This document shows positions 35,383 to 46,647 of a stretch of DNA of 64,000 bases, one piece after another. This stretch comes from Dehalococcoidia bacterium (GTDB taxonomy: Bacteria; Chloroflexota; Dehalococcoidia; UBA2979). The stretch is taken from the NCBI GenBank assembly GCA_964291495.2, contig OZ219871.1:1303355-1367354 (forward strand). Reading direction: 5' to 3'. Below the pieces are notes generated by a model, which was not told where the DNA came from, made no database searches, and saw only the letters and a program-made list of their open reading frames with translations. Each line of letters begins with the position of its first letter. Positions within the stretch are counted from its first letter, which is position 1. A program made the position numbers and the translations under genes.

Positions 35383-36642
35383 ATGTCCTTCGAACGTTCA
35401 CTGCGCTGCCGCGAGTGCGCGCGCGAGTTCCCGCTCGCCGCGGCCTTCTTCTGCGAGTTCTGTTTCGGCCCCCTCGAGGTCGCCTACGACTACGAGGGCA
35501 TCGCCGCCTCGATCTCCCGCGAGTCGATCGCGGCCGGGCCGCCGACGCTCTGGCGCTACGCCGATCTGTTGCCGTCCGAGCCCGAGTACCGCGTGGACCT
35601 CGGGGCGGGCTTCACGCCGCTGCTGCGGGCCGACAACCTGGCTGCGGCGCTCGGCCTCGAGCGGCTCTGGATCAAGAACGACACCGTCAACCCGACGTGG
35701 TCGTTCAAGGACCGCGTCGTCGCCGTCGCGATCGCAAAGGCGCGCGAGTTCGGCTACACCGGCATCGCCTGCGCCAGCACCGGCAACCTCGCGAACTCCG
35801 TCGCCGCGCACGGTGCTCGCGCCGGCATGGAGACGATCGTCTTCATCCCGCACGACCTCGAGGAGGGCAAGGTCGTCGGCAGCGGGATCTACGACCCGAC
35901 GCTCGTGATGGTCGAGGGCTCCTACGACGACGTGAACCGGCTCTGCACGGAGGTGTCGCAGTCCAAGCCGTGGGCCTTCGTCAACATCAACGTGCGGCCC
36001 TACTACGCCGAGGGATCGCGCACGCTCGGCTTCGAGGTCGCCGAGCAACTCGGCTGGCGCACGCCGGACCACTGCGTGGTGCCGATGGCCTCGGGCTCCC
36101 TCTTCACGAAGATCTGGAAGGGCTTCAACGAGCTGCACCAGGTCGGCTTGATCGACGAGCCGCGCACCCGTATGTCGGGGGCGCAGGCGGCCGGCTGCTC
36201 GCCCATCGCGACTGCCTTCGAGGAGGGCACGCTCAACTTCCGACCGCAGAAGCCGGACACGATCGCGCGCTCGATCGCCATCGGCAACCCGGCGGACGGC
36301 TACTATGCGCTCAAGACGCTGGAGGAGACGAACGGCGTCGCGGCAATGGCGACGGACGCGGAGATCGTCGACGGCATGAAGCTGCTGGCGGAGACCGAGG
36401 GCATCTTCGCGGAGACGGCGGGCGGCACCACGATCGCCTGCCTCAAGCACATGGTGGAGCGCGGCCAGATCGCGCCCGGCGAGGAGACCGTCGCCTTCAT
36501 CACCGGCGGAGGCCTCAAGACCACCGAGGCGCTGCAGGGCGGGCTCGCCAGCCCGCTGCTCGTGCCCGCCCGCGGCGACGCGTTCATCGAGGCCTACGAG
36601 GCGCGGCGGGCGCCCGCCGCAGCCGCGACAGGAGGGGCATGA
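35383..36642 (+). CDS. threonine-synthase-family PLP enzyme with N-terminal Cys4 zinc ribbon (ThrC, or MetM-like O-phosphohomoserine sulfhydrylase)
   Basis: CRECAREF...FCEFCFGPLE ribbon, PLP-lysine motif NPTWSFKDR, CASTGN, ITGGGLK. Function is ambiguous because of its operon partners (NIL plus CysO-type carrier). Confidence 0.9.
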   Translation: MSFERSLRCRECAREFPLAAAFFCEFCFGPLEVAYDYEGIAASISRESIAAGPPTLWRYADLLPSEPEYRVDLGAGFTPLLRADNLAAALGLERLWIKNDTVNPTWSFKDRVVAVAIAKAREFGYTGIACASTGNLANSVAAHGARAGMETIVFIPHDLEEGKVVGSGIYDPTLVMVEGSYDDVNRLCTEVSQSKPWAFVNINVRPYYAEGSRTLGFEVAEQLGWRTPDHCVVPMASGSLFTKIWKGFNELHQVGLIDEPRTRMSGAQAAGCSPIATAFEEGTLNFRPQKPDTIARSIAIGNPADGYYALKTLEETNGVAAMATDAEIVDGMKLLAETEGIFAETAGGTTIACLKHMVERGQIAPGEETVAFITGGGLKTTEALQGGLASPLLVPARGDAFIEAYEARRAPAAAATGGA

Positions 36643-36887
36643 TGGCAAGCAGGCCGGTCCGCTTCACTTTCTCGCCCGAGCTGATCCAGGAGCCGCTGAT
36701 CTACCTGCTCGGCCACGAGTTCGAGGTGATCACCAACATCCGCATGGCCGACGTCGACGCGCGCGTCGGCTGGGTCGTGCTCGAGCTCGAGGGCGAGCCG
36801 GACGAGATCGATCGCGCCATCGCCTGGGCCGAGTCGAAGGGCGTGCGCGTGGACCAGGCGACCCTCGGCGACGTCGTCGAGGGCTAG
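36639..36887 (+). CDS. stand-alone NIL domain protein
   Basis: ATGATG at 36639 overlaps the upstream stop (ATGA): MMASRPVRFTFSPELIQEPLIYLLGHEFEVITNIRMADVDARVGWVVLELEGEPDEIDRAIAWAESKGVRV, the NIL pattern (ferredoxin-like fold, as in the MetN C-terminus). Confidence 0.75.
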   Translation: MMASRPVRFTFSPELIQEPLIYLLGHEFEVITNIRMADVDARVGWVVLELEGEPDEIDRAIAWAESKGVRVDQATLGDVVEG

Positions 36888-36939
36888 CGAGCCGCAACCC
36901 GCCCGGCGCGCCGGGCCCGACAGCGAGAGGACCACTGCG

Positions 36940-37215
36940 ATGGCAGTGAACGTGCGAATCCCCGCCCCGCTCCGCACCCTGACGGGCGACCAGGAGCTCG
37001 TCAGCGCCGACGGCGCGACGCTGGCCGACGTGGTCGAGCACCTCGAGGCGTCCTACCCCGGCATGCGCGAGCGGCTCTGCGAGGACGACGGCGAGCTGCG
37101 CCGCTTCGTCAACGTCTTCGTGAACGGCGAGGACGTGCGTTTCCTCTCCGGCCTCGCCAGCGAGCTGAGCGAGGGCGACGAGGTCTCGATCGTCCCGGCG
37201 GTGGCCGGCGGCTAG
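36940..37215 (+). CDS. CysO/MoaD/ThiS-family ubiquitin-like sulfur carrier (carrier 1, MetO-like by context)
   Basis: 91 aa ending ...RRFVNVFVNGEDVRFLSGLASELSEGDEVSIVPAVAGG-stop. GAGAGGA SD. Confidence 0.9.
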   Translation: MAVNVRIPAPLRTLTGDQELVSADGATLADVVEHLEASYPGMRERLCEDDGELRRFVNVFVNGEDVRFLSGLASELSEGDEVSIVPAVAGG

Positions 37216-37231: not shown

Positions 37232-38404
37232 ATGACCGGCTCGACGATCACGGACCTTCGCTACTACCTGGTCCACCCGACGCCGCCCGAGACCGGGCAG
37301 CCCGATCGCTACACCGCGGGCAAGAACCTCTGCTTCGTGCGCCTCGAGACCGCCGACGGCCTGCACGGCTGGGGCGAGTGCTACACGCAGTCCGATCGCG
37401 ACATCCAGATCACCGCGCACCTCGAGGCGCTGCGACGCTACATCGAGGGCTGGGACGCGGCGCGGATCAAGCCGTGGACGGACGCGATCTACAACGACTT
37501 CGGCAACCGCCGCGGCGCGATGGACCTCTACTCCGCGATCTCCGGCGTGGAGCAGGCGATGTGGGACCTCGCGGGCAAGCGCGCGGGCATGCCCGTGCAC
37601 CAGCTGCTCGGCGGCGCGGTGCGCGACCGGCTGCGCGTCTACGCCAACGGCTGGGCGCGCATGGACGACCTCGATGAGCTGCAGGCCCGCGCGCGGGCGA
37701 TGGCCGATCGCGGCTTCACCGGGCTCAAGTTCGACCCCGTGCCGGGCAAGTGGCGCAGCTACGTGGGCATGCCGGAGCTGCGCACCGCCGCCGATCGCGT
37801 CCGCGCCGTGCGCGAGGCGGTTGGCCCCGACGTCGACATCCTCGTCGAGGTCCACCGGCGGCTGAGCCCCTCGAACGCCGTACGGCTGGCGAAGCTGGTC
37901 GAGCAGTACGAGCCGTACTGGTTCGAGGAGCCGGTCTGGGCCGAGAACGTGACCGCCCTCGCCGCCGCCACGGCGCAGATCAACATCCCCACCGTCACCG
38001 GCGAGGAGCTCTACACCAAGTTCGAGTTCCGCGAGGCCTTCGAGCAGCGCGCCGCCGACATCATCAACCCCGACGTGGCGAACGTCGGCGGCATCAAGGA
38101 GCTGACTGAGATCGCGGCGATGGCCGAGGCCTACTTCGTCGCGGTCAGCCCGCACAACTACAACTCGACGACGGTGGCGCTGGCCTCGACGCTGCAGGCC
38201 GCGGCGACGATGCCCAACTTCATCATCACCGAGTACTTCGTGAACTTCGAGGGGTGGGGCCGGGAAGCGGCGACGGCGCCGTTCGAGGTGGTGGACAGCC
38301 ACATCGCCCTCCCGACGGCGCCGGGCCTCGGCATCGACCTCGACGAGGAGGTGCTGAAGGCGCATCCGGCGCGCGAGTTCCCGGTGCGCACGATCGGCGA
38401 CTAG
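37232..38404 (+). CDS. enolase-superfamily enzyme (mandelate racemase / muconate lactonizing family, acid-sugar dehydratase-like)
   Basis: HGWGECY, AISGVEQAMWDLAGKRAGMPVHQLLGG, VEVHRRL, YWFEEP, GEELYT, ADIINPDVANVGGI. Starts 16 nt after carrier 1. Confidence 0.88.
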   Translation: MTGSTITDLRYYLVHPTPPETGQPDRYTAGKNLCFVRLETADGLHGWGECYTQSDRDIQITAHLEALRRYIEGWDAARIKPWTDAIYNDFGNRRGAMDLYSAISGVEQAMWDLAGKRAGMPVHQLLGGAVRDRLRVYANGWARMDDLDELQARARAMADRGFTGLKFDPVPGKWRSYVGMPELRTAADRVRAVREAVGPDVDILVEVHRRLSPSNAVRLAKLVEQYEPYWFEEPVWAENVTALAAATAQINIPTVTGEELYTKFEFREAFEQRAADIINPDVANVGGIKELTEIAAMAEAYFVAVSPHNYNSTTVALASTLQAAATMPNFIITEYFVNFEGWGREAATAPFEVVDSHIALPTAPGLGIDLDEEVLKAHPAREFPVRTIGD

Positions 38405-38469
38405 CCGATCCGGGCTCCGCTCCTCGGGGCGAGGTCGCTGAGCCAGGGAGCAGATCGAGGGGCAGTCAG

Positions 38470-39555
38470 ATGAAGGTAAGCGGCTGGACCACCCGCGTGC
38501 TTGAGGTCCCGGACGTCAATCCGCTCATCGTCGGCGTCGACCAGCCCGGTACGCGGGAGTTCGTCACGCTGGAGCTGGACACCGACGAGGGCGTGCAGGG
38601 CATCGGCATAACCTTCTTCGGCGGCCCGCTGACACCGGCGCTGCGCACGGCGGTCGACAACCTCTGCGAGCTGACGGTGGGCGAGGACCCGCTGCAGGTG
38701 GAAGCGGTCAGCGACAAGCTGTGGCTCGCGGCGGGCGGCGCCGGCCCCGAGGGCATCTTCACCCTCGCGCTGGCGGCGATCGACATCGCGCTCTGGGACA
38801 TCAAGGGCAAGGCGCTGAACCAGACGGTGTGCTCGCTGCTGGGCGGGCACCGCGACCGGGTGGTGACCTACGCCAGCGGCGCGCTGGGGCGTCCGATGAG
38901 CATCGAGTATCTGGCCGAGGCAGGCCCTCGGCTGGTGGACATGGGCTTCAGGCAGATGAAGACCCAGATGGGCGCCGAGCCGACCGCCCGGCGCGAGGTG
39001 GCCCGCATCCGCACGCTGCGCGACGCGATCGGCCCGGACATCGATCTGATGTGCGACATCAACCAGCTCTGGGACGTCAACCAGGCGATCGAGATCGGAT
39101 CGCGCGTGGAGGAGTACCACCTGTACTGGCTGGAGGACGTGGTCGTCCGCGACGACTACCAGGGCCTGGCGCGGGTGGCCGACGCGCTCACGACGCCGAT
39201 CGCCGCCGGAGAGTACGTCTACGGCATCCGCCCCTTCCGGCACATGCTGGAGCAGCGCTCGATCGACATCGTGATGGTCGACCTGCTGCGGGTGGGCGGG
39301 TTCACGCAGTTCCGCAAGGTGGCGGGCATGGCCGAGGCCTTCAACCTGCCCGTGGTCAGCCATTTGGTCCCCGAGCTGCAGGTGCACTCCATCGCTGCCG
39401 TGCCCAACGGGCTGACGGTGGAGTACATGCCCTGGACGCTGCGGCTCTACGAGGAAACCCCGGCCATCGAGGACGGGGAAATCGTGGTGCCGGACAAGCC
39501 GGGCCTGGGCCTCGCGTTCGACCGGGACGCCCTCGAGCGCTACCAGGTTGGCTAG
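38470..39555 (+). CDS. enolase-superfamily enzyme (mandelate racemase / muconate lactonizing family), second paralogue
   Basis: Internal ATG at 38470 (MKVSGWTTRVLEVP...). ALAAIDIALWDIKGKALNQTVCSLLGG, DINQLW, YWLEDV, AAGEYVY, DIVMVDLLRVGG. Confidence 0.88.
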   Translation: MKVSGWTTRVLEVPDVNPLIVGVDQPGTREFVTLELDTDEGVQGIGITFFGGPLTPALRTAVDNLCELTVGEDPLQVEAVSDKLWLAAGGAGPEGIFTLALAAIDIALWDIKGKALNQTVCSLLGGHRDRVVTYASGALGRPMSIEYLAEAGPRLVDMGFRQMKTQMGAEPTARREVARIRTLRDAIGPDIDLMCDINQLWDVNQAIEIGSRVEEYHLYWLEDVVVRDDYQGLARVADALTTPIAAGEYVYGIRPFRHMLEQRSIDIVMVDLLRVGGFTQFRKVAGMAEAFNLPVVSHLVPELQVHSIAAVPNGLTVEYMPWTLRLYEETPAIEDGEIVVPDKPGLGLAFDRDALERYQVG

Positions 39556-39628: not shown

Positions 39629-40075
39629 ATGTGGCTGAGCAGGAAGGGCGACTACGGCGTTCGCGCGCTGATTGACCTCGCGCTCCACGACGGCGAGGGG
39701 CCGGTCCAGCGCGCGGGCATCGCCGATCGCCAGGAGATCCCGGAGTCCTACCTCGATCACCTGATGGCGCTGCTGCGCCGCGGCGGCTTCGTGCGCAGCG
39801 TGCGAGGCCCGGGCGGCGGCCACCTGCTGACCCGCCGCCCCGAGGAGATCTGCCTGCTCCACGTGATCGAGAGCCTCGAGGGCTCCGTCGCCCCGATTTC
39901 CTGCGTCGAGGATGGTGAGGAGTGCACCTACGACTGCGGTCTCTGCGCCCAGCGCCCCGTCTGGGAGGAGATCTACCAGGACATGCGCCGCCGCCTCGGC
40001 GCGGTCAGCATCGCCGACCTCGCGGAGCGCGCGCGGGCGCAGCAGCACGCCCGGGCCGCGCACTACTCGATCTGA
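39629..40075 (+). CDS. Rrf2-family transcriptional regulator (IscR/CymR-like) with four-Cys cluster
   Basis: MWLSRKGDYGVRALIDLAL..., wHTH IADRQEIPESYLDHLMALLRRGGFVRSVRGPGGGHLL, Cys cluster ISCVEDGEECTYDCGLC. Confidence 0.9.
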   Translation: MWLSRKGDYGVRALIDLALHDGEGPVQRAGIADRQEIPESYLDHLMALLRRGGFVRSVRGPGGGHLLTRRPEEICLLHVIESLEGSVAPISCVEDGEECTYDCGLCAQRPVWEEIYQDMRRRLGAVSIADLAERARAQQHARAAHYSI

Positions 40076-41028
40076 TGACGACGACCACGCACACCACGGA
40101 GGGTCGCCGCGCCCAGCCGGCGATCGCCGACTCCGTGCTCGACCTGATCGGCGGGACGCCGCTCGTGCGGTTGCACCGCGTCGTACCCGAGGGCTGCGCC
40201 GAGATCCTCGGCAAGCTCGAGTCGCGCAACCCGGCCGGTTCGGTCAAGGACCGGATCGCGCTGAGCATGATCGAGGACGCGGAGCGCGACGGCCTGATCG
40301 CGCCGGGCGACACGATCGTCGAGCCGACCTCGGGGAACACCGGCATCGGCCTCGCGATGGTCTGCGCGCGCAAGGGCTACGAGCTGATCCTGACGATGCC
40401 CGAGGACATGAGCGTCGAGCGGCGGCGCCTGCTCGAGCGCTTCGGAGCGGAGCTGCGGCTGACCCCGGCGATCGAGGGCATGACGGGCGCGGTCTACGCC
40501 GCCCGGCAGTTGTCCGAGGAGCACGGCTACTTTATGCCGCAGCAGTTCGACAACCTCGCCAACCCGCGCACCCACCGCGAGACCACGGGCCCCGAGATCA
40601 TCGAGGCCACCGGGGGCGAGCTCGACGCGTTCGTCGCCGGCGTCGGCACCGGCGGATCGATCACCGGCGTCGGCGAGGTGCTGCGTGAGGCCGGCGTGGG
40701 CGTGCGCATCGTCGCCGTCGAGCCGTCGCGGTCGCCCGTGCTGCAGGGCGGGCGCGCCGGGCTGCACGGCATCCAGGGCATCGGCGCCTCGTTCGTGCCG
40801 GGCGTGCTCAACCGCGAGGTCTACGACGAGGTGATCAGCGTCCGCGACGAGGACGCCTACACGATGGCGGAGCGGCTCACCCGCGAGGAAGGCCTGCTCG
40901 TCGGCATCTCCGCCGGCGGCAACGTCTGGGCCTCGATCGAGATCGGCAAGCGGCTGGGGCCGGACTGTCGCGTGGTGACGATGTTGTGCGACACCGGGGA
41001 GCGCTACCTGAGCGTGGCGCTCTCGTGA
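40075..41028 (+). CDS. cysK: cysteine synthase (CysK-type PLP enzyme)
   Basis: ATG at 40075 overlaps the rrf2 stop (ATGA). LIGGTPLVRL, ESRNPAGSVKDR, EPTSGNTGIGLAMV. Confidence 0.9.
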   Translation: MTTTTHTTEGRRAQPAIADSVLDLIGGTPLVRLHRVVPEGCAEILGKLESRNPAGSVKDRIALSMIEDAERDGLIAPGDTIVEPTSGNTGIGLAMVCARKGYELILTMPEDMSVERRRLLERFGAELRLTPAIEGMTGAVYAARQLSEEHGYFMPQQFDNLANPRTHRETTGPEIIEATGGELDAFVAGVGTGGSITGVGEVLREAGVGVRIVAVEPSRSPVLQGGRAGLHGIQGIGASFVPGVLNREVYDEVISVRDEDAYTMAERLTREEGLLVGISAGGNVWASIEIGKRLGPDCRVVTMLCDTGERYLSVALS

Positions 41029-41093: not shown

Positions 41094-42212
41094 ATGGCGG
41101 TCAGCGTCTACATCCCACAGCCATTCCGCAGGTTCACGGCGAACCGCGAGTACGTCGAGGTGGACGGCGGCGACGTCGCGGGGGTCCTCGACGCGGTGAA
41201 CGCGCGCTACCCCGGCTTCGACATGCTGGTCTATGACCGCGAGCGCCGGGTGCCCGCGCACATCAACATCTACGTCAACAACCAGGAGATCCACGACCTC
41301 GACGGCATCTCGACGGCCGTCGGCGACGGCGACCAGGTCGCGGTCATCCCCGCGCTCGCGGGCGGCGCCGCGCCCAGCACGGCGCTCACCCCGGACGAGG
41401 CGATGCGCTACTCGCGGCACATCATCATGCCGCAGGTCGGCTCGATCGGGCAGCGCCAGCTGCGCAACGCGAAGGTGCTGATCGTCGGCGCGGGCGGCCT
41501 CGGCTCCCCGGTCGCGATCTACCTCGCGCTGGCCGGCGTCGGCACGATCGGCCTGGTCGACTTCGACGTGGTCGACCTCTCCAACCTGCAGCGCCAGCTG
41601 CTGCACCAGACCGAGGATGTCGGACGCACGAAGCTCGACTCGGCGGTGGACACGCTGCACGCCTACAACCCGCACGTGCGGGTCGTGACGCACCCTGCGC
41701 CGCTGCACTCGGAGAACGCGATGGAGATCATCGGGGACTACGAGATCATCGTGAACGGCGCGGACAACTTCGCGACGCGCTACCTGGTGAACGACGCCGC
41801 CTACCTGCTGGGCAAGACCCTGGTCGACGGCTCGATCCTGCTCTTCGACGGGCAGGCCACGGTGTTCAAGCCCGGCGAGGGCTGCTACCGCTGCCTTTAC
41901 CCCGCGCCGCCGCCTCCCGGCCTCGTGCCATCGTGCGCCGAGGCGGGCGTGCTCGGCGCGATCACCGGCATCGTCGGCTCGATCCAGGCGACCGAGGTGT
42001 TCAAGCAGGTGCTGGACATCGGCCGGCCACTCGTCGGGCGGCTGCTGCTGATCGACGCCTTGACCATGGAGTTCCGCGAGATGAAGCTGCGGCGCGACCC
42101 GGCTTGCCCGCTCTGCGGCGACGAGCCGACCGTGACGGAGCTCATCGACTACGACGCGTTCTGCGGCTCCCCACCGCTCGAGGCCCCGACGGCCAACGGC
42201 GGCGGACACTAG
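41094..42212 (+). CDS. fusion protein: CysO/MoaD-like ubiquitin-like sulfur-carrier domain (residues 1-91, ending AGG) plus MoeB/ThiF-type E1 adenylyltransferase
   Basis: MAVSVYIPQPFRRFT...ARYPGF...INIYVNNQEIHDLDGISTAVGDGDQVAVIPALAGG (GG encoded at 41361-41366) continues without a stop into AAPSTALTPDEAMRYSRHIIMPQVG...VLIVGAGGLGSP...SCAEAGVLG, with CYRC...CPLC zinc motifs. Alternative start at ATG 41061. Confidence 0.85.
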   Translation: MAVSVYIPQPFRRFTANREYVEVDGGDVAGVLDAVNARYPGFDMLVYDRERRVPAHINIYVNNQEIHDLDGISTAVGDGDQVAVIPALAGGAAPSTALTPDEAMRYSRHIIMPQVGSIGQRQLRNAKVLIVGAGGLGSPVAIYLALAGVGTIGLVDFDVVDLSNLQRQLLHQTEDVGRTKLDSAVDTLHAYNPHVRVVTHPAPLHSENAMEIIGDYEIIVNGADNFATRYLVNDAAYLLGKTLVDGSILLFDGQATVFKPGEGCYRCLYPAPPPPGLVPSCAEAGVLGAITGIVGSIQATEVFKQVLDIGRPLVGRLLLIDALTMEFREMKLRRDPACPLCGDEPTVTELIDYDAFCGSPPLEAPTANGGGH

Positions 42213-42252: not shown

Positions 42253-42528
42253 TTGGAGGTGCGGGTCAACGTGACCTCGGTCATCCAGAAGACCGTCGGC
42301 GGGCAGCGCGCGCTGACCGCCGAGGGCGGCACCATCGCGGAGCTGATCGACGACATCGAGCGGCGCTATCCGGGCTTCCGCGACCAGCTCGTCGACGAGG
42401 GCGGGCAGCTGCACCGCTTCGTCAACGTCTACCTCAACGACGAGGATGTGCGCTTCATGGAGGGCGCCGCGACGGTCCTCAGCGAGGGCGACGAGGTGTC
42501 GATCCTCCCCGCGCTGGCCGGCGGCTAG
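42253..42528 (+). CDS. cysO: CysO-type ubiquitin-like sulfur carrier (carrier 3)
   Basis: 91 aa ending ...HRFVNVYLNDEDVRFMEGAATVLSEGDEVSILPALAGG-stop. TTG (or GTG 42259) start. 15 nt upstream of cysM. Confidence 0.9.
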   Translation: MEVRVNVTSVIQKTVGGQRALTAEGGTIAELIDDIERRYPGFRDQLVDEGGQLHRFVNVYLNDEDVRFMEGAATVLSEGDEVSILPALAGG

Positions 42529-42543
42529 CGGCGGAGCAGCATC

Positions 42544-43512
42544 GTGGGTGAGGCGGCAGCGCGGCAGACCGGGCGGACGCCCGCCGGCAGCGTGCTCGAC
42601 CGCATCGGCGGCACCCCGCTGGTCGACATCTCCGCGATGTCGCCCAACCCGGACGTCAGCATCTACGCCAAGCTCGAGGGCGAGAACCCGACCGGCTCGG
42701 TCAAGGATCGCATCGCCTGGTGGATGGTCTCGAGCGCCGAGCGCGACGGCCGCCTGGAGCCGGGCCAGACGATCCTCGAGCCGACCTCCGGTAACACTGG
42801 GATCTCGCTCGCCATGATCGGCCGCCTCCGCGGGTACCCGGTGAAGGTGGTCATGCCGGACGCCGTCACGCGCGAGCGCGTCCAGCTGCTCGAGAGCTTC
42901 GGCGCGGAGATCCTCTACTCGCCGGGCGACCTTGGCACCAACGGCTCGGTGCGCGAGGCGGAGCGCATCCACACCGAGCATCCCGAGTGGTTCATGCCCT
43001 TCCAGTACGAGAACGAGGACAACCCGCGCGCCCACTACGACAGCACCGCCCCCGAGATCATCGAGGATTTGCCGGACACCGACGTCTTCGTCGCCGGCCT
43101 CGGCACGGGCGGCACGCTGACCGGCGTCGGCCGGCGGCTCAAGGAGCACAACCCGGCCGTGCGTATCGTCGCCGCCGCCCCGCACCCGGGCGACCTCGTG
43201 CAGGGCCTGCGCAGCCTCGAGGAGGGCTACATCCCGCCCGTCCTCGACGAGTCCGTGCTCGACGGCCGGATCGTCGTTGACTCGGCGACCTCGTTCCGGC
43301 TGACGCGGGAGCTGACGGAGCGCACCGGCATCTTCGCGGGCGTCTCCAGCGGTGCGGCGGTGCGCGCCGCACAGCGCGCGGCGGAGCGGATGGCCGGTGG
43401 GAAGGTGGTCTGCCTGCTGGCGGACAGCGGCTGGAAGTACCTCTCCTCGGGCCTCTGGACGCAGGACTACGACGAGATCGAGGAGGACGTAAGCACGACG
43501 CTCTGGTGGTAG
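42544..43512 (+). CDS. cysM: CysM-type cysteine synthase (carrier-thiocarboxylate / O-phosphoserine-dependent type, by context)
   Basis: IGGTPLVDI, GENPTGSVKDR, EPTSGNTGISLAMI. GTG start. Confidence 0.88.
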   Translation: MGEAAARQTGRTPAGSVLDRIGGTPLVDISAMSPNPDVSIYAKLEGENPTGSVKDRIAWWMVSSAERDGRLEPGQTILEPTSGNTGISLAMIGRLRGYPVKVVMPDAVTRERVQLLESFGAEILYSPGDLGTNGSVREAERIHTEHPEWFMPFQYENEDNPRAHYDSTAPEIIEDLPDTDVFVAGLGTGGTLTGVGRRLKEHNPAVRIVAAAPHPGDLVQGLRSLEEGYIPPVLDESVLDGRIVVDSATSFRLTRELTERTGIFAGVSSGAAVRAAQRAAERMAGGKVVCLLADSGWKYLSSGLWTQDYDEIEEDVSTTLWW

Positions 43513-43561
43513 CCGGAGCGTGAACGACCGGCGGCAGGGCCGCCGGGAAGGGGGAAGCAGG

Positions 43562-44386
43562 ATGGCTGACAAGCTTGTCACCGCGGACTGGGTCGCCGAA
43601 CACGGCGGCGATGCGAACGTGCGCCTCGTCGAGGTGGACGTCGACACCGGCGCCTACGACGAGGGCCACATCGCCGGCGCCGTCGGCTGGAACTGGGCCA
43701 CGCAGCTGCAGGACCAGGTGCGCCGCGACGTGATCGCGAAGGACGACCTCGAGGAGCTCCTCGGCGCGTCCGGGATCGGCAACGACACGCACGTGGTGCT
43801 CTACGGCGACAACAACAACTGGTTCGCGGCCTACGCGCTGTGGCTGCTCGAGCTCCACGGCCACGAGCAGGTCTCGCTGATGGACGGCGGGCGCGTGAAG
43901 TGGATCGCCGACGGGCGTGAGATCACGACCGACGCGCCCTCGATCGGCCGCGCGAGCTACTCGGCGTCGGAGCAAGACGCGGGCCTGCGCGCGCAGCGCG
44001 ACGAGGTGCTCGCGGCAGTCGCGGCGCAGGCGCCGCAGCTGGTGGACGTGCGCAGCCCGGCCGAGTTCGTCGGCGAGATCATCGCGCCGCCCGGCCTGCC
44101 GGAGACGGCGCAGCGCGGCGGGCACATCCCGGGCGCGATCAACGTTCCCTGGGCGCGCGCCGTCAACGAGGACGGCACCTTCCGCAGCGCCGACGAGCTG
44201 CGCGAGATCTACGGCGGCGCCGGCGTCAGCGCGGGCGATCCGGCGATCGCCTACTGCCGCATCGGCGAGCGCTCCTCGCACACCTGGTTCGTGCTCAAGT
44301 ACCTGCTCGGCCACGAGGACGTGAAGAACTACGACGGCTCGTGGACCGAGTACGGCTCGCTCATCGGCGTGCCGATCGAGACCTAG
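43562..44386 (+). CDS. two-domain rhodanese (thiosulfate sulfurtransferase, SseA/CysA-like)
   Basis: Internal ATG at 43562 with GGGAAGGGGGAAG SD: MADKLVTADWVAEH...EGHIAGAV. Active-site loop YCRIGERSSHTWF. Confidence 0.88.
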   Translation: MADKLVTADWVAEHGGDANVRLVEVDVDTGAYDEGHIAGAVGWNWATQLQDQVRRDVIAKDDLEELLGASGIGNDTHVVLYGDNNNWFAAYALWLLELHGHEQVSLMDGGRVKWIADGREITTDAPSIGRASYSASEQDAGLRAQRDEVLAAVAAQAPQLVDVRSPAEFVGEIIAPPGLPETAQRGGHIPGAINVPWARAVNEDGTFRSADELREIYGGAGVSAGDPAIAYCRIGERSSHTWFVLKYLLGHEDVKNYDGSWTEYGSLIGVPIET

Positions 44387-44396
44387 CCCGGAGCCG

Positions 44397-44795
44397 GTGG
44401 CGGCGGGCGCGATGGCGGGAGGCAGCGAGGGCGGGCGCGGATCGCAGCGCGCGATCGTCGAGCGAGCGATCGCGCGCGGCGAGTACGGGCTGCTGACGCT
44501 GCGCTTCCGCACCTCCGTCCTCGACCGCTACCGCGAACGGGCGGACGCGCGGATGATCCGCACGCGCACGGTCGGCCGCATCGCGATCGTGCGCGGCTGG
44601 TCGATCGACGCGGGGATCGCGCCCGGCGAGGAGGAGATCGAGGTGTTCGCGTCGGACTTCGCCGAGCGTGTCCCCGAGGCTGAGCGCGCGCACTGGCTCG
44701 ACCACCTCGCGGTGCAGCCGTCGAGCGCGAACTTCGCGCTGATGCGGCTCAGCGGGAACGCCTGCATCGACGACGGCGAGCCGGAGGCCTGGTAG
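44397..44795 (+). CDS. hypothetical protein, unknown function, wedged between the rhodanese and JAMM genes
   Basis: Track ORF with GTG start (alternative ATG 44412). It starts 10 nt after the rhodanese stop and ends 2 nt before the JAMM start. GC3-rich. No family recognised. Confidence 0.6.
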   Translation: MAAGAMAGGSEGGRGSQRAIVERAIARGEYGLLTLRFRTSVLDRYRERADARMIRTRTVGRIAIVRGWSIDAGIAPGEEEIEVFASDFAERVPEAERAHWLDHLAVQPSSANFALMRLSGNACIDDGEPEAW

Positions 44796-44797
44796 CG

Positions 44798-45229
44798 GTG
44801 CCGCGGATTCCTCGAGCCATCGCCGACGCGATCATCGCGCACGCCCGAGAGGATCTGCCGAACGAGGCGTGCGGCCTGGTGCACGCGAAGGACGGCGAGC
44901 CGATCTCGGTGCACCGCGTCACCAACGTCGCCGCCAGCCCCTACCGCTTCGAGATGCACGGCATGGAGCAGATGCGGCTGGAGCAGCAGCGCGACGAGCG
45001 AGGCGAGACGCTGTTCGCGATCTACCACTCGCACGTCGCCTCCCCCGCCTACCCCTCGCAGACCGACGTGCGGATGGCGTTCTTCCCGCCCGGAGAGACG
45101 GACCGCGATCCGGCCTACCCGGGAACCTTCTACCTGCTCGTCTCGCTCGCCGAGGATCCGCCGCCGCTGCACACCTACTACATTCACAAGGGCGGCGTGA
45201 TCGAGGAGATCCCCGCCGAGATCGTCTGA
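44798..45229 (+). CDS. JAMM/MPN+ metalloprotease (Mec+/CysO hydrolase-like)
   Basis: NEACGLV (catalytic Glu) and HSHVASPAYPSQTD, an exact H-x-H-x7-S-x2-D JAMM motif. Confidence 0.9.
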   Translation: MPRIPRAIADAIIAHAREDLPNEACGLVHAKDGEPISVHRVTNVAASPYRFEMHGMEQMRLEQQRDERGETLFAIYHSHVASPAYPSQTDVRMAFFPPGETDRDPAYPGTFYLLVSLAEDPPPLHTYYIHKGGVIEEIPAEIV

Positions 45230-45247: not shown

Positions 45248-46120
45248 ATGCCGCCCGAACCATCCGCCTCGCCGCCCCCGCCGATCACGATCGGCGGACG
45301 CTGCTTCGAGTGGGGACGGCGCAGCTACGTGATGGGCATCGTCAACGCCACGCCCGACTCCTTCTCCGGCGACGGCGTCCTCGACCCCGCCGCCGCCGCC
45401 GGCCAGGCCGCGCGCATGGTCGGGGACGGCGCGGACCTGATCGACGTCGGCGCGGAGTCCACGCGGCCCGACCACGAGCCCCTCGACGCTGCCGGGGAGT
45501 GGGCGCGCCTCGCGCCCGTGCTGCGCGCCGTGCGCGAGGCAGTCGAGGCGCCGATCAGCGTCGACACCTCGAAGGCGCACGTCGCCGAGCGCGCCTTCGA
45601 CGCAGGCGCGGACGCACTCAACGACGTGCACGGCCTGCGCGCCGACCCCGCGCTCGCGCCGCTGCTCGCCGCGCGCGGGCTGCCCGCCGTGCTGATGCAC
45701 AACCAGCGCGGCCGCCCCGCCTCCGGCGACGTGATCGCCGACGTGCGCGCGGGCCTCGAGGAGTCGCTCGCGATCGCCGAGGCGGCGGGCGTGCGGCGCG
45801 AGCTGCTGATCCTCGATCCCGGCTTCGGGTTCGGGATCGGGCCGGCGCAGAGCCTCGAGCTCGTGCGCCGGCTCGGCGAGCTGCGCTGCTTCGGGCGGCC
45901 GCTGCTGCTGGGTAGCTCGCGCAAGTCCGCGATCGGCTGGGCGCTCGGGCGCGAGCAGGAGCCGGCCGCCTCGCGCGTCGCCGGGAGCGCCGCAACGGTG
46001 GCGCTCGCCATCGCCGCCGGGGCCGACATCGTGCGCGTCCACGACGTGCGCGAGATGGCGGACGTCGCGAGGGTCACGGACGCGGTCCTGCACGGGCGTC
46101 GCCGCGAGGAGCCGGCGTGA
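45248..46120 (+). CDS. folP: dihydropteroate synthase
   Basis: [36 protein letters not shown]. Confidence 0.93.
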
Positions 46121-46647
46121 CGGCGGGCGCCGTGCTGCGCGTCTACCTGGGCATCGGCGGCAACCTCGGCGACCGCGTCGCCGCGCTGCGCACGGGCCTC
46201 GAGCGGCTTGCCGAGGCGGGCGTGACCATCGAGGCGGTCTCATCGCTCTGGGAGACGGAGCCGTGGGGTGGACCGGCCTGCGCCGAGCCCGCGCCGGCCT
46301 ACGCGAACGCCGCCGCCTGCGTGCGCAGCACGCTCGAACCCCTTGAGCTGCTGCGCCTCTGCAAGCGCATCGAGGTCGCCGCGGGGCGCGATCTGGACGC
46401 GCCGCGCAACAGCCCGCGCCCGCTCGATCTCGACCTGCTGCTCGCCGGCGACCTGCGCATCGAGAGCGAGGAGCTGCGGATCCCGCACCCGCGCATGCAC
46501 CAGCGCGGCTTCGTGCTCGTTCCCCTCGCCGAGATCGCACCGGACGTCGTGCACCCGCTGCTCGGGCGCTCGATCGCCGAGCTGCGCGACGCGGTGGGCC
46601 TCGAGGGCGTCGAGCCGCTCTCGCCGGCGGGCTGGGAGTCCGGCTAG
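46117..46647 (+). CDS. folK: 2-amino-4-hydroxy-6-hydroxymethyldihydropteridine diphosphokinase
   Basis: [39 protein letters not shown]. 4-nt overlap with folP. Confidence 0.92.

Follow-up and report, generated by a model that had tools for sequence, protein, structure and literature searches.

A gene of a Dehalococcoidia bacterium (Chloroflexota) joins a ubiquitin-like (Ubl) sulfur carrier of the CysO/MoaD type, in a single reading frame, to a MoeB/ThiF-type E1 enzyme that in other systems activates such carriers. We think it probable, on the evidence of the sequence and its relatives, that this gene makes an inert pro-carrier/E1 precursor that would be cut after the Gly-Gly (GG) motif of the carrier by a JAMM metalloprotease encoded in the same cluster. 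The stretch of DNA analyzed here (the window) comprises 64,000 nucleotides of contig OZ219871.1 (assembly GCA_964291495.2), and all coordinates are given relative to its first nucleotide (Table 1).

Table 1. The fusion gene, its parts and the neighboring genes of the sulfur cluster
Feature	Position	Strand	Remarks
ThrC-like PLP enzyme (MetM-like)	35383..36642	+	Pfam/NCBIfam
NIL-domain protein	36639..36887	+	Pfam/NCBIfam
Free carrier A (MetO-like)	36940..37215	+	ends AGG-stop; 55% identical to M. tuberculosis CysO
Rrf2-family regulator	39629..40075	+	stop codon overlaps CysK start
CysK-type cysteine synthase, directly upstream of fusion gene	40075..41028	+	TIGR01139 cysK, 427.8 bits vs 351 cut-off
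Ubl-E1 fusion ORF	41094..42212	+	372 aa; ATG start; TAG stop (42210-42212) included
CysO/MoaD-type beta-grasp carrier domain, N-terminal	41094..41366	+	residues 1-91, end IPALAGG
Gly90-Gly91	41361..41366	+	predicted cleavage site (after G91), predicted future adenylation site
Linker AAPST	41367..41381	+	residues 92-96; E. coli MoeB residue 4 aligns with residue 97
MoeB/ThiF-type E1 adenylyltransferase domain, without rhodanese	41382..42209	+	Pfam ThiF, PRK05690, 1jw9_B
Free CysO-type carrier B	42253..42528	+	ends AGG-stop, directly upstream of CysM; 47% identical to M. tuberculosis CysO
CysM-like PLP-dependent cysteine synthase	42544..43512	+	Pfam/NCBIfam
Stand-alone two-domain rhodanese (SseA/3-mercaptopyruvate sulfurtransferase-like)	43520..44386	+	Pfam/NCBIfam
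Conserved protein of unknown function, between rhodanese and JAMM	44397..44795	+	clade-restricted
JAMM/MPN+ metalloprotease (Mec-like), candidate maturase	44798..45229	+	Prok-JAB, E 1.4e-20

Both halves of the protein are recognized by Pfam, with ThiS (PF02597) matching residues 7-91 (E 3.9e-10) and ThiF (PF00899) residues 106-339 (E 1.2e-78). The carrier domain aligns end to end with CysO-type structures (4n6e_B, 7e-13; M. tuberculosis CysO 3dwg_C, 3e-12) and is 33-35% identical to CysO and to both free carriers of the cluster. Past the codons for Gly90-Gly91 the frame reads on without a stop as AAPSTALTPDEAMRYSRH and enters the E1 domain, which is a MoeB/ThiF-type adenylyltransferase with predicted adenylating activity. 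This domain scores 297 bits against the NCBIfam PRK05690 MoeB subfamily (cut-off 266), aligns with E. coli MoeB (1jw9_B, 1.3e-57) and contains the GAGGLGS P-loop together with the SCAEAGV, CYRC and CPLC motifs. The arginine motif RYSRH, both CxxC zinc motifs and C281, the crossover-loop cysteine within SCAEAGV, match up with 1jw9_B. In alignment A1, GAGGLGS, R105-Y-S-R-H, C264/C267, C338/C341 and C281 are invariant, as is the GG of the carrier. Pfam finds no rhodanese domain on the fusion protein, and the MoeZ equivalog score of 367 bits is below the cut-off of 647, indicating that this is not an E1-rhodanese of the MoeZ/MoeZR type. An initial annotation made from the letters and open reading frames had described residues 1-91 as a CysO/MoaD-type domain ending in IPALAGG (GG at 41361-41366), followed by a complete in-frame E1 with these four motifs and without a C-terminal rhodanese, and had noted that the carriers at 36940 and 42253 stop right after AGG; domain searches and translations agree with it on every point.

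As translated, the GG of the fusion is internal, at residues 90-91 of 372, and is followed by 281 residues rather than forming the C-terminus. A sulfur carrier with a C-terminal GG could therefore be obtained from this protein only by proteolysis. Adenylation of a carrier by an E1 requires a free alpha-carboxylate, and thus the fused carrier would be unusable as long as it is uncut. An AF2 monomer model of the fusion consists of two folded domains with a disordered junction. The carrier domain is folded in this model (block-mean pLDDT 78-91 for residues 1-80), and pLDDT values below 50 at residues 89-95 predict disorder around the GG and the linker.

The fusion itself is well documented in related genomes. 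Relative to the window gene, ten independent MAG assemblies show 39-73 nt differences, 72-85% of which fall at codon position 3, and the frame at the junction is identical and free of indels in all ten. Both Pfam domains are present in 119 of the 120 best homologue clusters (the exception, P0003, is E1-only), the fusion is one continuous ORF in 28 of 34 related Chloroflexota species genomes, and Ubl-E1 fusions occur in unrelated phyla as well. It is true that six related species have two separate genes, with a shift of frame in the linker. Nonetheless, the conserved frame and the prevalence of fused homologues lead us to reject the view that the genes were joined by a frame-shifting error of sequencing or assembly, or by loss of a stop codon, an origin that we regard as next to impossible.

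The initial annotation had looked to orthologous fusions for support, which the counts above supply, and had treated orthologues in two pieces as evidence against a fusion. Two-gene orthologues do exist, since carrier and E1 genes are separate and translationally coupled in 6 of the 34 species, but these species form one derived clade nested among fused forms and all others are fused. Moreover, the separate carrier of the split species ends in GG plus 3-11 residues. Because the tail after GG persists where the genes are divided, the split orthologues strengthen the case for cleavage rather than refute it, and suggest that the covalent tether is dispensable whereas trimming is not.

Conservation on the two sides of the predicted cleavage site differs sharply. 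The GG motif, whose invariance had been raised by the initial annotation as a point to establish, proves to be nearly invariant: 119 of 120 fused clade sequences (the window and 119 clusters) have it, the exception being the singleton P0027 with AAG, as do 13 of 14 fusions from more distant lineages (41-63% identity). The next residue in fused sequences is A in 100 cases, S in 14, D in 3 and Q in 1. In contrast, the linker beyond GG is 2-27 aa long in relatives, hypervariable, unconserved and of low complexity. Over 34 species the fused carrier domain has a mean identity of 81%, compared with 75-76% for the two free carriers, which argues that the fused domain is under selection. In about a third of the related species the free carriers themselves continue for 1-5 residues past GG, and these extensions suggest that trimming after GG is needed across the clade. 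Within this one clade, then, the extension beyond GG may be absent, 1-11 residues long or a full E1.

Near-invariance of GG beside a freely drifting linker is not what would be expected if the Ubl domain stayed uncleaved as a regulatory, pseudo-substrate or docking domain and only the free carriers carried sulfur. Such a domain might sit in the partner subunit's adenylation site, or might recruit the rhodanese or the PLP enzymes. The cluster already encodes two free carriers that end in GG, such that a third carrier is not obviously needed, and of the three carrier domains the fused one has diverged furthest (33-35% identity to CysO, versus 47-55% for the free carriers). In addition, the linker is as short as about 2 residues in some relatives, and the N-terminal arginine of MoeB reaches the active site of the partner subunit in structure 1JW9; the tail would thus stay in the vicinity of the E1. 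A fused Ubl-like domain devoid of GG occurs in at least one lineage (P0212), and a non-carrier role has been proposed for a different Ubl-ThiF fusion that co-occurs with solo ThiS (Iyer et al. 2006). These features notwithstanding, the split-gene clade does without the tether, and distant fusions adjoin a JAB gene with no other carrier gene nearby. A non-cleaved regulatory or docking domain, which the initial annotation had offered as its alternative, is disfavored by GG conservation, the split clade and the distant JAB loci, and we consider it unlikely. The same three lines of evidence support the pro-carrier/E1 precursor that the annotation had put first, with the JAMM gene at 44798 as its candidate protease.

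The linkage to JAB genes recurs outside the clade. A GG-bearing Ubl-E1(-rhodanese) fusion directly adjoins a Prok-JAB gene, often overlapping it, in six of six distant lineages, and no other carrier (Ubl) ORF is detectable near these six fusions. Since these lineages have the JAB gene next door but lack any other carrier gene in the vicinity, the role of carrier must fall to the fused domain. Several distant fused relatives (P0122-P0124, P0130, P0145 and P0186) have a C-terminal rhodanese. Distant fused Ubl domains are 24-60% identical to the fused domain of the window and 23-43% identical to the free carriers, with no clear pattern in favor of one ancient fusion or of several, and the PLP enzymes beside distant fusions are 39% identical to the CysK and 37% identical to the CysM of the window, values too close to single out either one as the counterpart.

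For sister E1s that lack the Ubl domain, no JAMM gene and no Ubl gene lies within about 10 kb. Just upstream of the closest unfused E1s (L034-L037, L039 and L040), neither a stand-alone carrier gene nor a JAMM gene was found, which leaves an origin of the fusion through loss of the stop codon of an upstream carrier gene without support. For the GG-less fused variant of the P0212 lineage, no JAB gene is present in the 6 kb upstream; this contrast of no GG and no JAB comes from one locus, which ends at a contig end.

The candidate protease of the window has an intact metal-site motif, H-S-H-x7-S-x2-D (HSHVASPAYPSQTD), and its gene is found within the cluster in all 34 related species. It is located 2.6 kb from the fusion gene and does not adjoin it, a counter-point to its assignment as maturase. 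Mec-type JAMMs also accompany carriers that require no trimming, and thus the presence of a JAMM gene alone proves little. For example, the CysO carrier of M. tuberculosis already ends in GG, and Mec is still encoded there. The two parts of the fusion could instead be separated without the JAMM of the cluster, by another protease, by self-cleavage or by an internal start near Met103. The role of the JAMM would then be limited to that of a Mec-type hydrolase acting on carrier adducts and short tails. At the start of the E1 domain there is indeed an ATG (Met103), with GACGAGG in front of it. However, many fused homologues have T, D or N at this position, so that an internal start is unconserved. 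Cleavage of linear Ubl fusions after GG has been demonstrated for JAMM enzymes, and the adjacent or overlapping JAB genes of all six distant lineages likewise speak against separation by other means, which we judge to be quite improbable.

The genes surrounding the fusion place it in a context of cysteine and methionine sulfur assimilation, with CysK, CysM, a ThrC-like enzyme, a rhodanese and the JAMM protease. The CysK and Rrf2 genes are present in 34 of 34 related loci, the latter in synteny and also upstream in the distant locus L080, and a rhodanese gene is present in 31 of 34. Carrier A adjoins the genes for the ThrC-like and NIL proteins. The small protein encoded between rhodanese and JAMM has no Pfam or NCBIfam match; a counterpart is present in 32 of 34 loci, and its homologues comprise only 40 clusters, all unnamed or 'hypothetical' and confined to the clade. 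Among the ten flanking genes, Pfam reveals no MoaE, ThiG or tRNA-thiolation genes but only housekeeping genes, and a released carrier therefore cannot be assigned to molybdenum cofactor, thiamin or tRNA work.

In the mechanism that we propose, a CysO-family carrier precedes its own MoeB-type E1, tethered to the enzyme's N-terminus via GG and a short disordered linker. The JAMM protein would cut after Gly91, which would free an active E1 and a carrier of 91 residues that ends in an exposed GG carboxylate; ...DQVAVIPALAGG would be the C-terminus of the carrier and AAPSTALTPDEAMR the N-terminus of the enzyme. The released E1 would adenylate its own former carrier as well as the two free CysO/MetO-type carriers. 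Persulfide sulfur for conversion to carrier thiocarboxylates would come from the stand-alone rhodanese, which is the likely sulfur donor. The thiocarboxylates could then feed CysM, the ThrC-like MetM-type enzyme and possibly CysK, for synthesis of cysteine and homocysteine. Short tails after GG on the free carriers of related species would presumably be trimmed by the same JAMM.

The proposed pathway has the same cast as the CysO/CysM/Mec/MoeZ system of M. tuberculosis and the MetO/MetM/Mec/MoeZ system of Streptomyces, namely a CysO-family carrier, CysM-like and ThrC-like PLP enzymes, a JAMM, a MoeB-type E1 and a rhodanese function. The window differs in that one carrier paralogue and the E1 share a single reading frame, in that three carriers share one E1, and in that this E1, unlike MoeZ, lacks a fused rhodanese and is accompanied by a separate two-domain rhodanese. 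A preprint summarizes the MetM/MetO homocysteine pathway with its ThrC-like enzyme, and Mec is reported (preprint) as required for MetO maturation.

Carriers that are made with residues after GG offer a second comparison. QbsE (GG-CF) and HcyS (GG-A) are pro-carriers trimmed by the JAMM proteins QbsD and HcyD. As in those systems, where the protease is needed to expose GG, the fusion has residues after GG and a JAMM gene in the same cluster, and carriers of related species have tails of 1-11 residues. The residue after GG in the fused clade is usually Ala, as in HcyS. Whereas the tails of QbsE and HcyS are one or two residues long, the 'tail' in the window is an entire enzyme of 281 residues.

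Comparable in architecture are M. tuberculosis MoaX (a MoaD-MoaE fusion), the D. radiodurans MoaD-MoaE protein and the engineered SAMP1-MoaE, in which an N-terminal carrier likewise leads via GG into a partner enzyme. In the linear SAMP1-MoaE fusion, HvJAMM1 cleaves precisely behind GG, a cut that is required for function (PMC4443979); MoaX is inactive until cleaved (PMC4326299), and DrMoaD-MoaE is cleaved by DRJAMM (PMC8832034). Activity of these fusions thus requires a JAMM cut after GG, a step that is predicted for the window. The partner in the MoaX-type proteins is MoaE, which uses the thiocarboxylate, whereas the partner in the window is the E1, whose substrate must have a free carboxylate, and the precursor would therefore block the first step of its own pathway.

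Linear N-terminal Ubl fusions that are released by a protease after GG are also well known from eukaryotes, in the form of ubiquitin-ribosomal protein fusions and polyubiquitin, and archaeal Rpn11 reportedly processes a ubiquitin precursor as well (PMC6043591). The window protein resembles these precursors in being made as a linear N-terminal Ubl fusion for which release after GG is proposed. It differs in that the partner is the activating enzyme itself and in that the context, as far as it shows, is a sulfur relay and not protein tagging.

Fusions of a beta-grasp domain to the N-terminus of an E1 adenylation domain are already listed in genomic surveys, as the initial annotation had stated, and neither survey reports processing of them. 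No experimental study of a natural Ubl-E1 fusion was found in the openly accessible literature. The Campylobacter-type Ubl-ThiF fusion of thiamin operons, which occurs with solo ThiS, was read as a non-carrier, its Ubl domain being described as 'distinct from ThiS' (Iyer et al. 2006). The annotated genes of the window do not provide such a thiamin operon with solo ThiS, and no thiamin genes were identified among them. By description, the present family is set apart from the type of Iyer et al. 2006 in being CysO-like, in residing in Cys/Met clusters or adjoining JAB genes, and in keeping GG.

Two extensions of the precursor model are speculative, and we consider them doubtful. As a zymogen, the uncleaved protein might gate the entire sulfur relay, with the tethered GG tail of one subunit of the E1 dimer sitting in the adenylation site of its partner. 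The E1 would then be closed to all three carriers until the JAMM cut, and one metalloprotease would be the master switch for synthesis of cysteine and homocysteine by way of thiocarboxylates. Another possibility is that the carrier, once released, doubles as a protein modifier resembling SAMP or TtuB.

Trimming of carriers by JAMM enzymes and cleavage of carrier-MoaE fusions are established. If the JAMM of this cluster releases the carrier, the fusion would be the first case found of a sulfur carrier made fused to its own activating enzyme, and the known extensions after GG, so far one or two residues, would come to include an entire enzyme. The homologous fusion proteins are currently annotated simply as 'MoeB', and the carrier within them is thus missed; tools that search for pathway gaps could call a carrier absent where the fusion is its only copy. 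The protein would also be a clean natural substrate with which to study how bacterial JAMM/Mec enzymes recognize and cut linear Ubl fusions. The parallel to eukaryotic ubiquitin precursor processing bears on the evolution of Ubl proteins from sulfur-relay systems. For the bacterium itself, cleavage of this precursor would mean that a protease step controls the supply of carrier and possibly the activity of the E1.

The carrier-E1 gene is one unbroken ORF, ATG to TAG, encoding a 372-aa protein. Pfam places a ThiS-family beta-grasp domain at residues 7-91 (E 3.9e-10) and a ThiF adenylation domain at residues 106-339 (E 1.2e-78), and finds no rhodanese domain in the protein. The carrier domain ends in IPALAGG, and beyond G90-G91 the frame continues through AAPSTALTPDEAMRYSRH to an E1 domain that has a GAGGLGS nucleotide loop, Cys281 within SCAEAGV, and the zinc motifs CYRC and CPLC. 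The protein exceeds the cut-off of the NCBIfam MoeB subfamily model PRK05690 and scores far under that of the rhodanese-containing MoeZ model. Over its full length, down to the terminal GG, its carrier domain aligns with the solved CysO-type carrier 4n6e_B (7e-13) and with M. tuberculosis CysO (3dwg_C, 3e-12). Residue 4 of E. coli MoeB pairs with fusion residue 97, which leaves only AAPST as the true linker. An AlphaFold2 model contains two folded domains, with very low confidence at the junction (pLDDT <50 at residues 89-95). The initial annotation had described this in-frame fusion, its lack of a C-terminal rhodanese domain, two free carriers that terminate right after AGG, and a nearby JAMM protease gene, and its factual statements were all correct. 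Carrier, E1 and JAMM are ordinary members of known families (CysO-type, MoeB-type and Mec-type, respectively).

In ten independent MAG assemblies of close relatives, the gene differs from that of the window by 39-73 nucleotides, with 72-85% of the differences at third codon positions, and the junction frame is identical and free of indels in all ten. Orthologous fusions are widespread: both Pfam domains occur in 119 of the 120 best homologue clusters (70-97% identity), the sole exception being P0003, an E1-only protein with an internal duplication of ~190 residues that is probably an assembly artefact. We also scanned one genome per species; both parts are present at the locus in 34 Chloroflexota/Dehalococcoidia species. 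Separate genes, the outcome that the initial annotation had set against a true fusion, do occur in six of these species, but carrier and E1 form one continuous ORF in the other 28, and none of the ten assemblies breaks the frame. Together these counts indicate that the fusion is a selected feature, and an artefact is excluded.

The 34 species share a gene order on one strand, and in the window the cluster genes are tightly packed or overlap.

Shared gene order of the sulfur cluster, with positions in the window
Order	Feature	Position	Strand	Remarks
1	ThrC-like enzyme
2	NIL-domain protein
3	Carrier A	36940-37215		Stops directly after AGG
1-3	Unit of genes 1 to 3	35383-37215
4	Variable region	37232-39555		In the window, two enolase-superfamily genes
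5	Rrf2 regulator
6	CysK
7	Ubl-E1 fusion	41094-42212	+
7	G90-G91 codons	41361-41366
8	Carrier B	42253-42528		Stops directly after AGG
9	CysM
10	Rhodanese			Stand-alone
11	Protein of 127-132 aa	44397-44795		No family match
12	JAMM	44798-45229		Prok-JAB, intact HSH-x7-S-x2-D motif
13	FolP
14	FolK
13-14	FolP and FolK	45248-46647

Two parts of the cluster recall known thiocarboxylate pathways: carrier B, CysM and JAMM are similar to the CysO pathway of M. tuberculosis, and the ThrC-like/carrier A unit is similar to MetM/MetO, a recently described route to homocysteine in which, according to a preprint, the JAMM protein Mec is needed for MetO maturation. In this conserved unit a small NIL-domain protein accompanies the ThrC-like PLP enzyme, which has a Cys-rich motif at its N-terminus, and the CysO-type carrier; the NIL-domain gene has no counterpart among the steps that the preprint's summary of the pathway lists. 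The enolase-superfamily genes, of the mandelate racemase/muconate-lactonising type, are found between the carrier A and Rrf2 genes in the closest relatives alone (loci L001-L009 and L038, most with both genes). They are absent from this position in L010-L033, and the pair is therefore a variable insertion in an otherwise conserved sulfur cluster. The gene between the rhodanese and JAMM genes is present there in 32 of the 34 species and stops 2 nt short of the JAMM start. Its product matches nothing in Pfam or NCBIfam, and its homologues fall into only about 40 clusters, with Chloroflexota the source of every named one; it could be an unrecognised sulfur-relay component. FolP and FolK, of folate biosynthesis, follow JAMM on the same strand in 32 and 31 of the 34 species, and no functional link to the sulfur-relay genes is known to us. 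Among ten flanking genes scanned, none belongs to Moco, thiamin or tRNA-thiolation pathways.

E1 enzymes adenylate a free C-terminal carboxylate, and a fused carrier is therefore chemically inert until it is cut. The junction was scanned in 121 sequences (the window protein and the 120 clusters), of which all except P0003 are fused. The GG, whose invariance the initial annotation had proposed to check, is kept in 119 of these 120: the motif is IPA[LIVM]AGG in 118 and VPALAGG in one. Only the singleton metagenome cluster P0027 departs from it, as the one fused member of the clade with AAG. In the 118 sequences, the residue after GG is Ala (100), Ser (14), Asp (3) or Gln (1), and the linker to the conserved E1 start (ALTPDEVMRYSRH) varies from 2 to 27 residues, rich in Gly/Ala/Ser/Asp/Asn/Pro and without conservation. 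Carrier and E1 might also come apart by a route other than JAMM cleavage: through a different protease, by self-cleavage, or because translation starts internally at Met103. We consider this quite improbable, and Met103, for its part, is not conserved among the fused homologues. Mean identity over the 34 species is 81% for the fused carrier domain versus 75-76% for the free carriers. The fused domain is nevertheless the most divergent of the three paralogues, sharing 33-35% identity with the free carriers and with CysO, against 47-55% between the free carriers and M. tuberculosis CysO.

In the six species with separate genes (L028-L033), the reading frame switches within the linker, and the two genes meet at ATGA or TAG-CG-ATG, as is typical of translationally coupled genes (locus positions around 10250-10340 in L028-L033; 7510-7610 in L028). 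A neighbour-joining tree of the E1 domain places the six as a single clade nested within fused forms, which looks like a single secondary fission. Their carriers retain tails of 3-11 residues past GG (SGA, AEQR, ADGGTR, ADGGMG or AFGFDADGGLR), which argues that the covalent E1 tether is dispensable while trimming after GG is still required. One tail, in L028 (7513-7570), is doubled by a 7-codon tandem duplication (IPALAGGSG-IPALAGGSGA), giving two consecutive candidate GG cleavage sites. Orthologues of the free carriers A and B (L001-L033 and L038) likewise extend past GG by 1-5 residues (A, C, M, N, V, RG, AR or ATLVQ) in about one in three related species, and those of the window end at GG exactly. 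The whole clade must therefore possess an activity that trims after GG, apparently routinely. Judged from these sequences, post-GG extension within one clade is a continuum, from none through 1-11 residues to a whole E1.

An exhaustive profile-free search recovered further fusions at 41-63% identity, many with an added C-terminal rhodanese domain (ThiS+ThiF+Rhodanese), and the junction GG is present in 13 of 14 examined. We read the genomic context of six such lineages, one with a Gemmatimonadales-named cluster member, one with an Evtepia-named member and a third adjoining spoIVA. A Prok-JAB gene directly adjoins the fusion gene in all six, often overlapping it.

Gene order around the fusion in six distant lineages
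Cluster	Arrangement
P0123	Rrf2 - PALP - JAB - Ubl-E1-Rhd
P0287	JAB - Ubl-E1-Rhd
P0124	Ubl-E1-Rhd - JAB
P0130	PKS - PALP - JAB - Ubl-E1-Rhd
P0184	JAB - Ubl-E1
P0200	EamA - JAB - Ubl-E1 - PALP

HMMs built from the carriers and JAMMs of the clade detect no carrier ORF besides the fused domain in five of these contexts, and the called genes around P0130 include no ThiS-family gene. The fused domain must therefore be the carrier there, with the JAB protein its obvious partner. Loci L080-L088, from lineages outside Chloroflexota that include Gemmatimonadales-like and Clostridia-like ones, encode three-domain ThiS-ThiF-Rhodanese proteins of 472-516 aa, with a JAB gene directly adjacent and no separate carrier nearby. 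An SrpI-like gene adjoins the P0287 fusion locus, as the PKS gene does that of P0130.

As controls, the closest unfused E1s (L034-L037, L039 and L040; 68-74% identical, from SAR202 and other Dehalococcoidia) have neither carrier nor JAMM within about 10 kb. These E1 genes adjoin a rhodanese or CysM-like gene, and the carrier of such E1/CysM pairs must be encoded elsewhere. P0212 (L089:6001-6959) is a fused E1 whose N-terminal Ubl-like domain has no GG tail (...NISLLSDDLSVLPELNPQEM), and no JAB gene was found in the 6 kb upstream, although this is a single case on a contig that ends inside the gene. This protein may be a degenerate form of the fusion that does not serve as a carrier. By gene order, JAB genes and GG-bearing fusions show tight linkage across phyla.

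The Ubl domain could also stay uncleaved in a regulatory or docking role, which would fit its divergence and the presence of two free carriers, and which echoes a proposal for a different Ubl-ThiF fusion (Iyer et al. 2006). However, this would leave the split clade, the tails, the distant JAB adjacency and the controls unexplained, and we regard it as unlikely. The comparative case that the conserved fusion is a precursor is strong. Given the conserved GG, the drifting linker, the tailed split clade, the free-carrier tails and the recurrent JAB adjacency, JAMM cleavage after Gly91, as favored in the initial annotation, is probably the best explanation. JAMM proteases are established to trim carriers made with C-terminal extensions. 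Their cleavage of carrier-MoaE fusions is also established (PMC4443979, PMC8832034): HvJAMM1 cuts a linear SAMP1-MoaE fusion exactly after GG, a cleavage required in vivo (PMC4443979), and DRJAMM cleaves native D. radiodurans MoaD-MoaE (PMC8832034). MoaX activity likewise requires cleavage (PMC4326299). In this model, JAMM would cut the precursor after Gly91 and the cleaved E1 would activate all three carriers; sulfur would come from the stand-alone rhodanese, and the carrier thiocarboxylates would be consumed by PLP enzymes of the cluster. Comparison of the PLP enzymes neighbouring the distant fusions does not single out the enzyme using the released carrier.

Comparative-genomic surveys have noted a Ubl-ThiF fusion (Iyer et al. 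2006) and a "Ubl-E1-TBP in Thaumarchaeota", said to be common to bacteria too (Makarova & Koonin 2010), both without follow-up. Literature outside subscription journals yielded no experimental study of a natural carrier-E1 fusion in our searches. The present analysis adds the conservation of the fusion, the continuum of post-GG extensions, and the cross-phylum JAB linkage of GG-bearing fusions. It also corrects an annotation blind spot, as the fusion proteins are at present named simply "MoeB". A carrier-E1 fusion would not greatly surprise a specialist, but it offers a clean, directly testable system.
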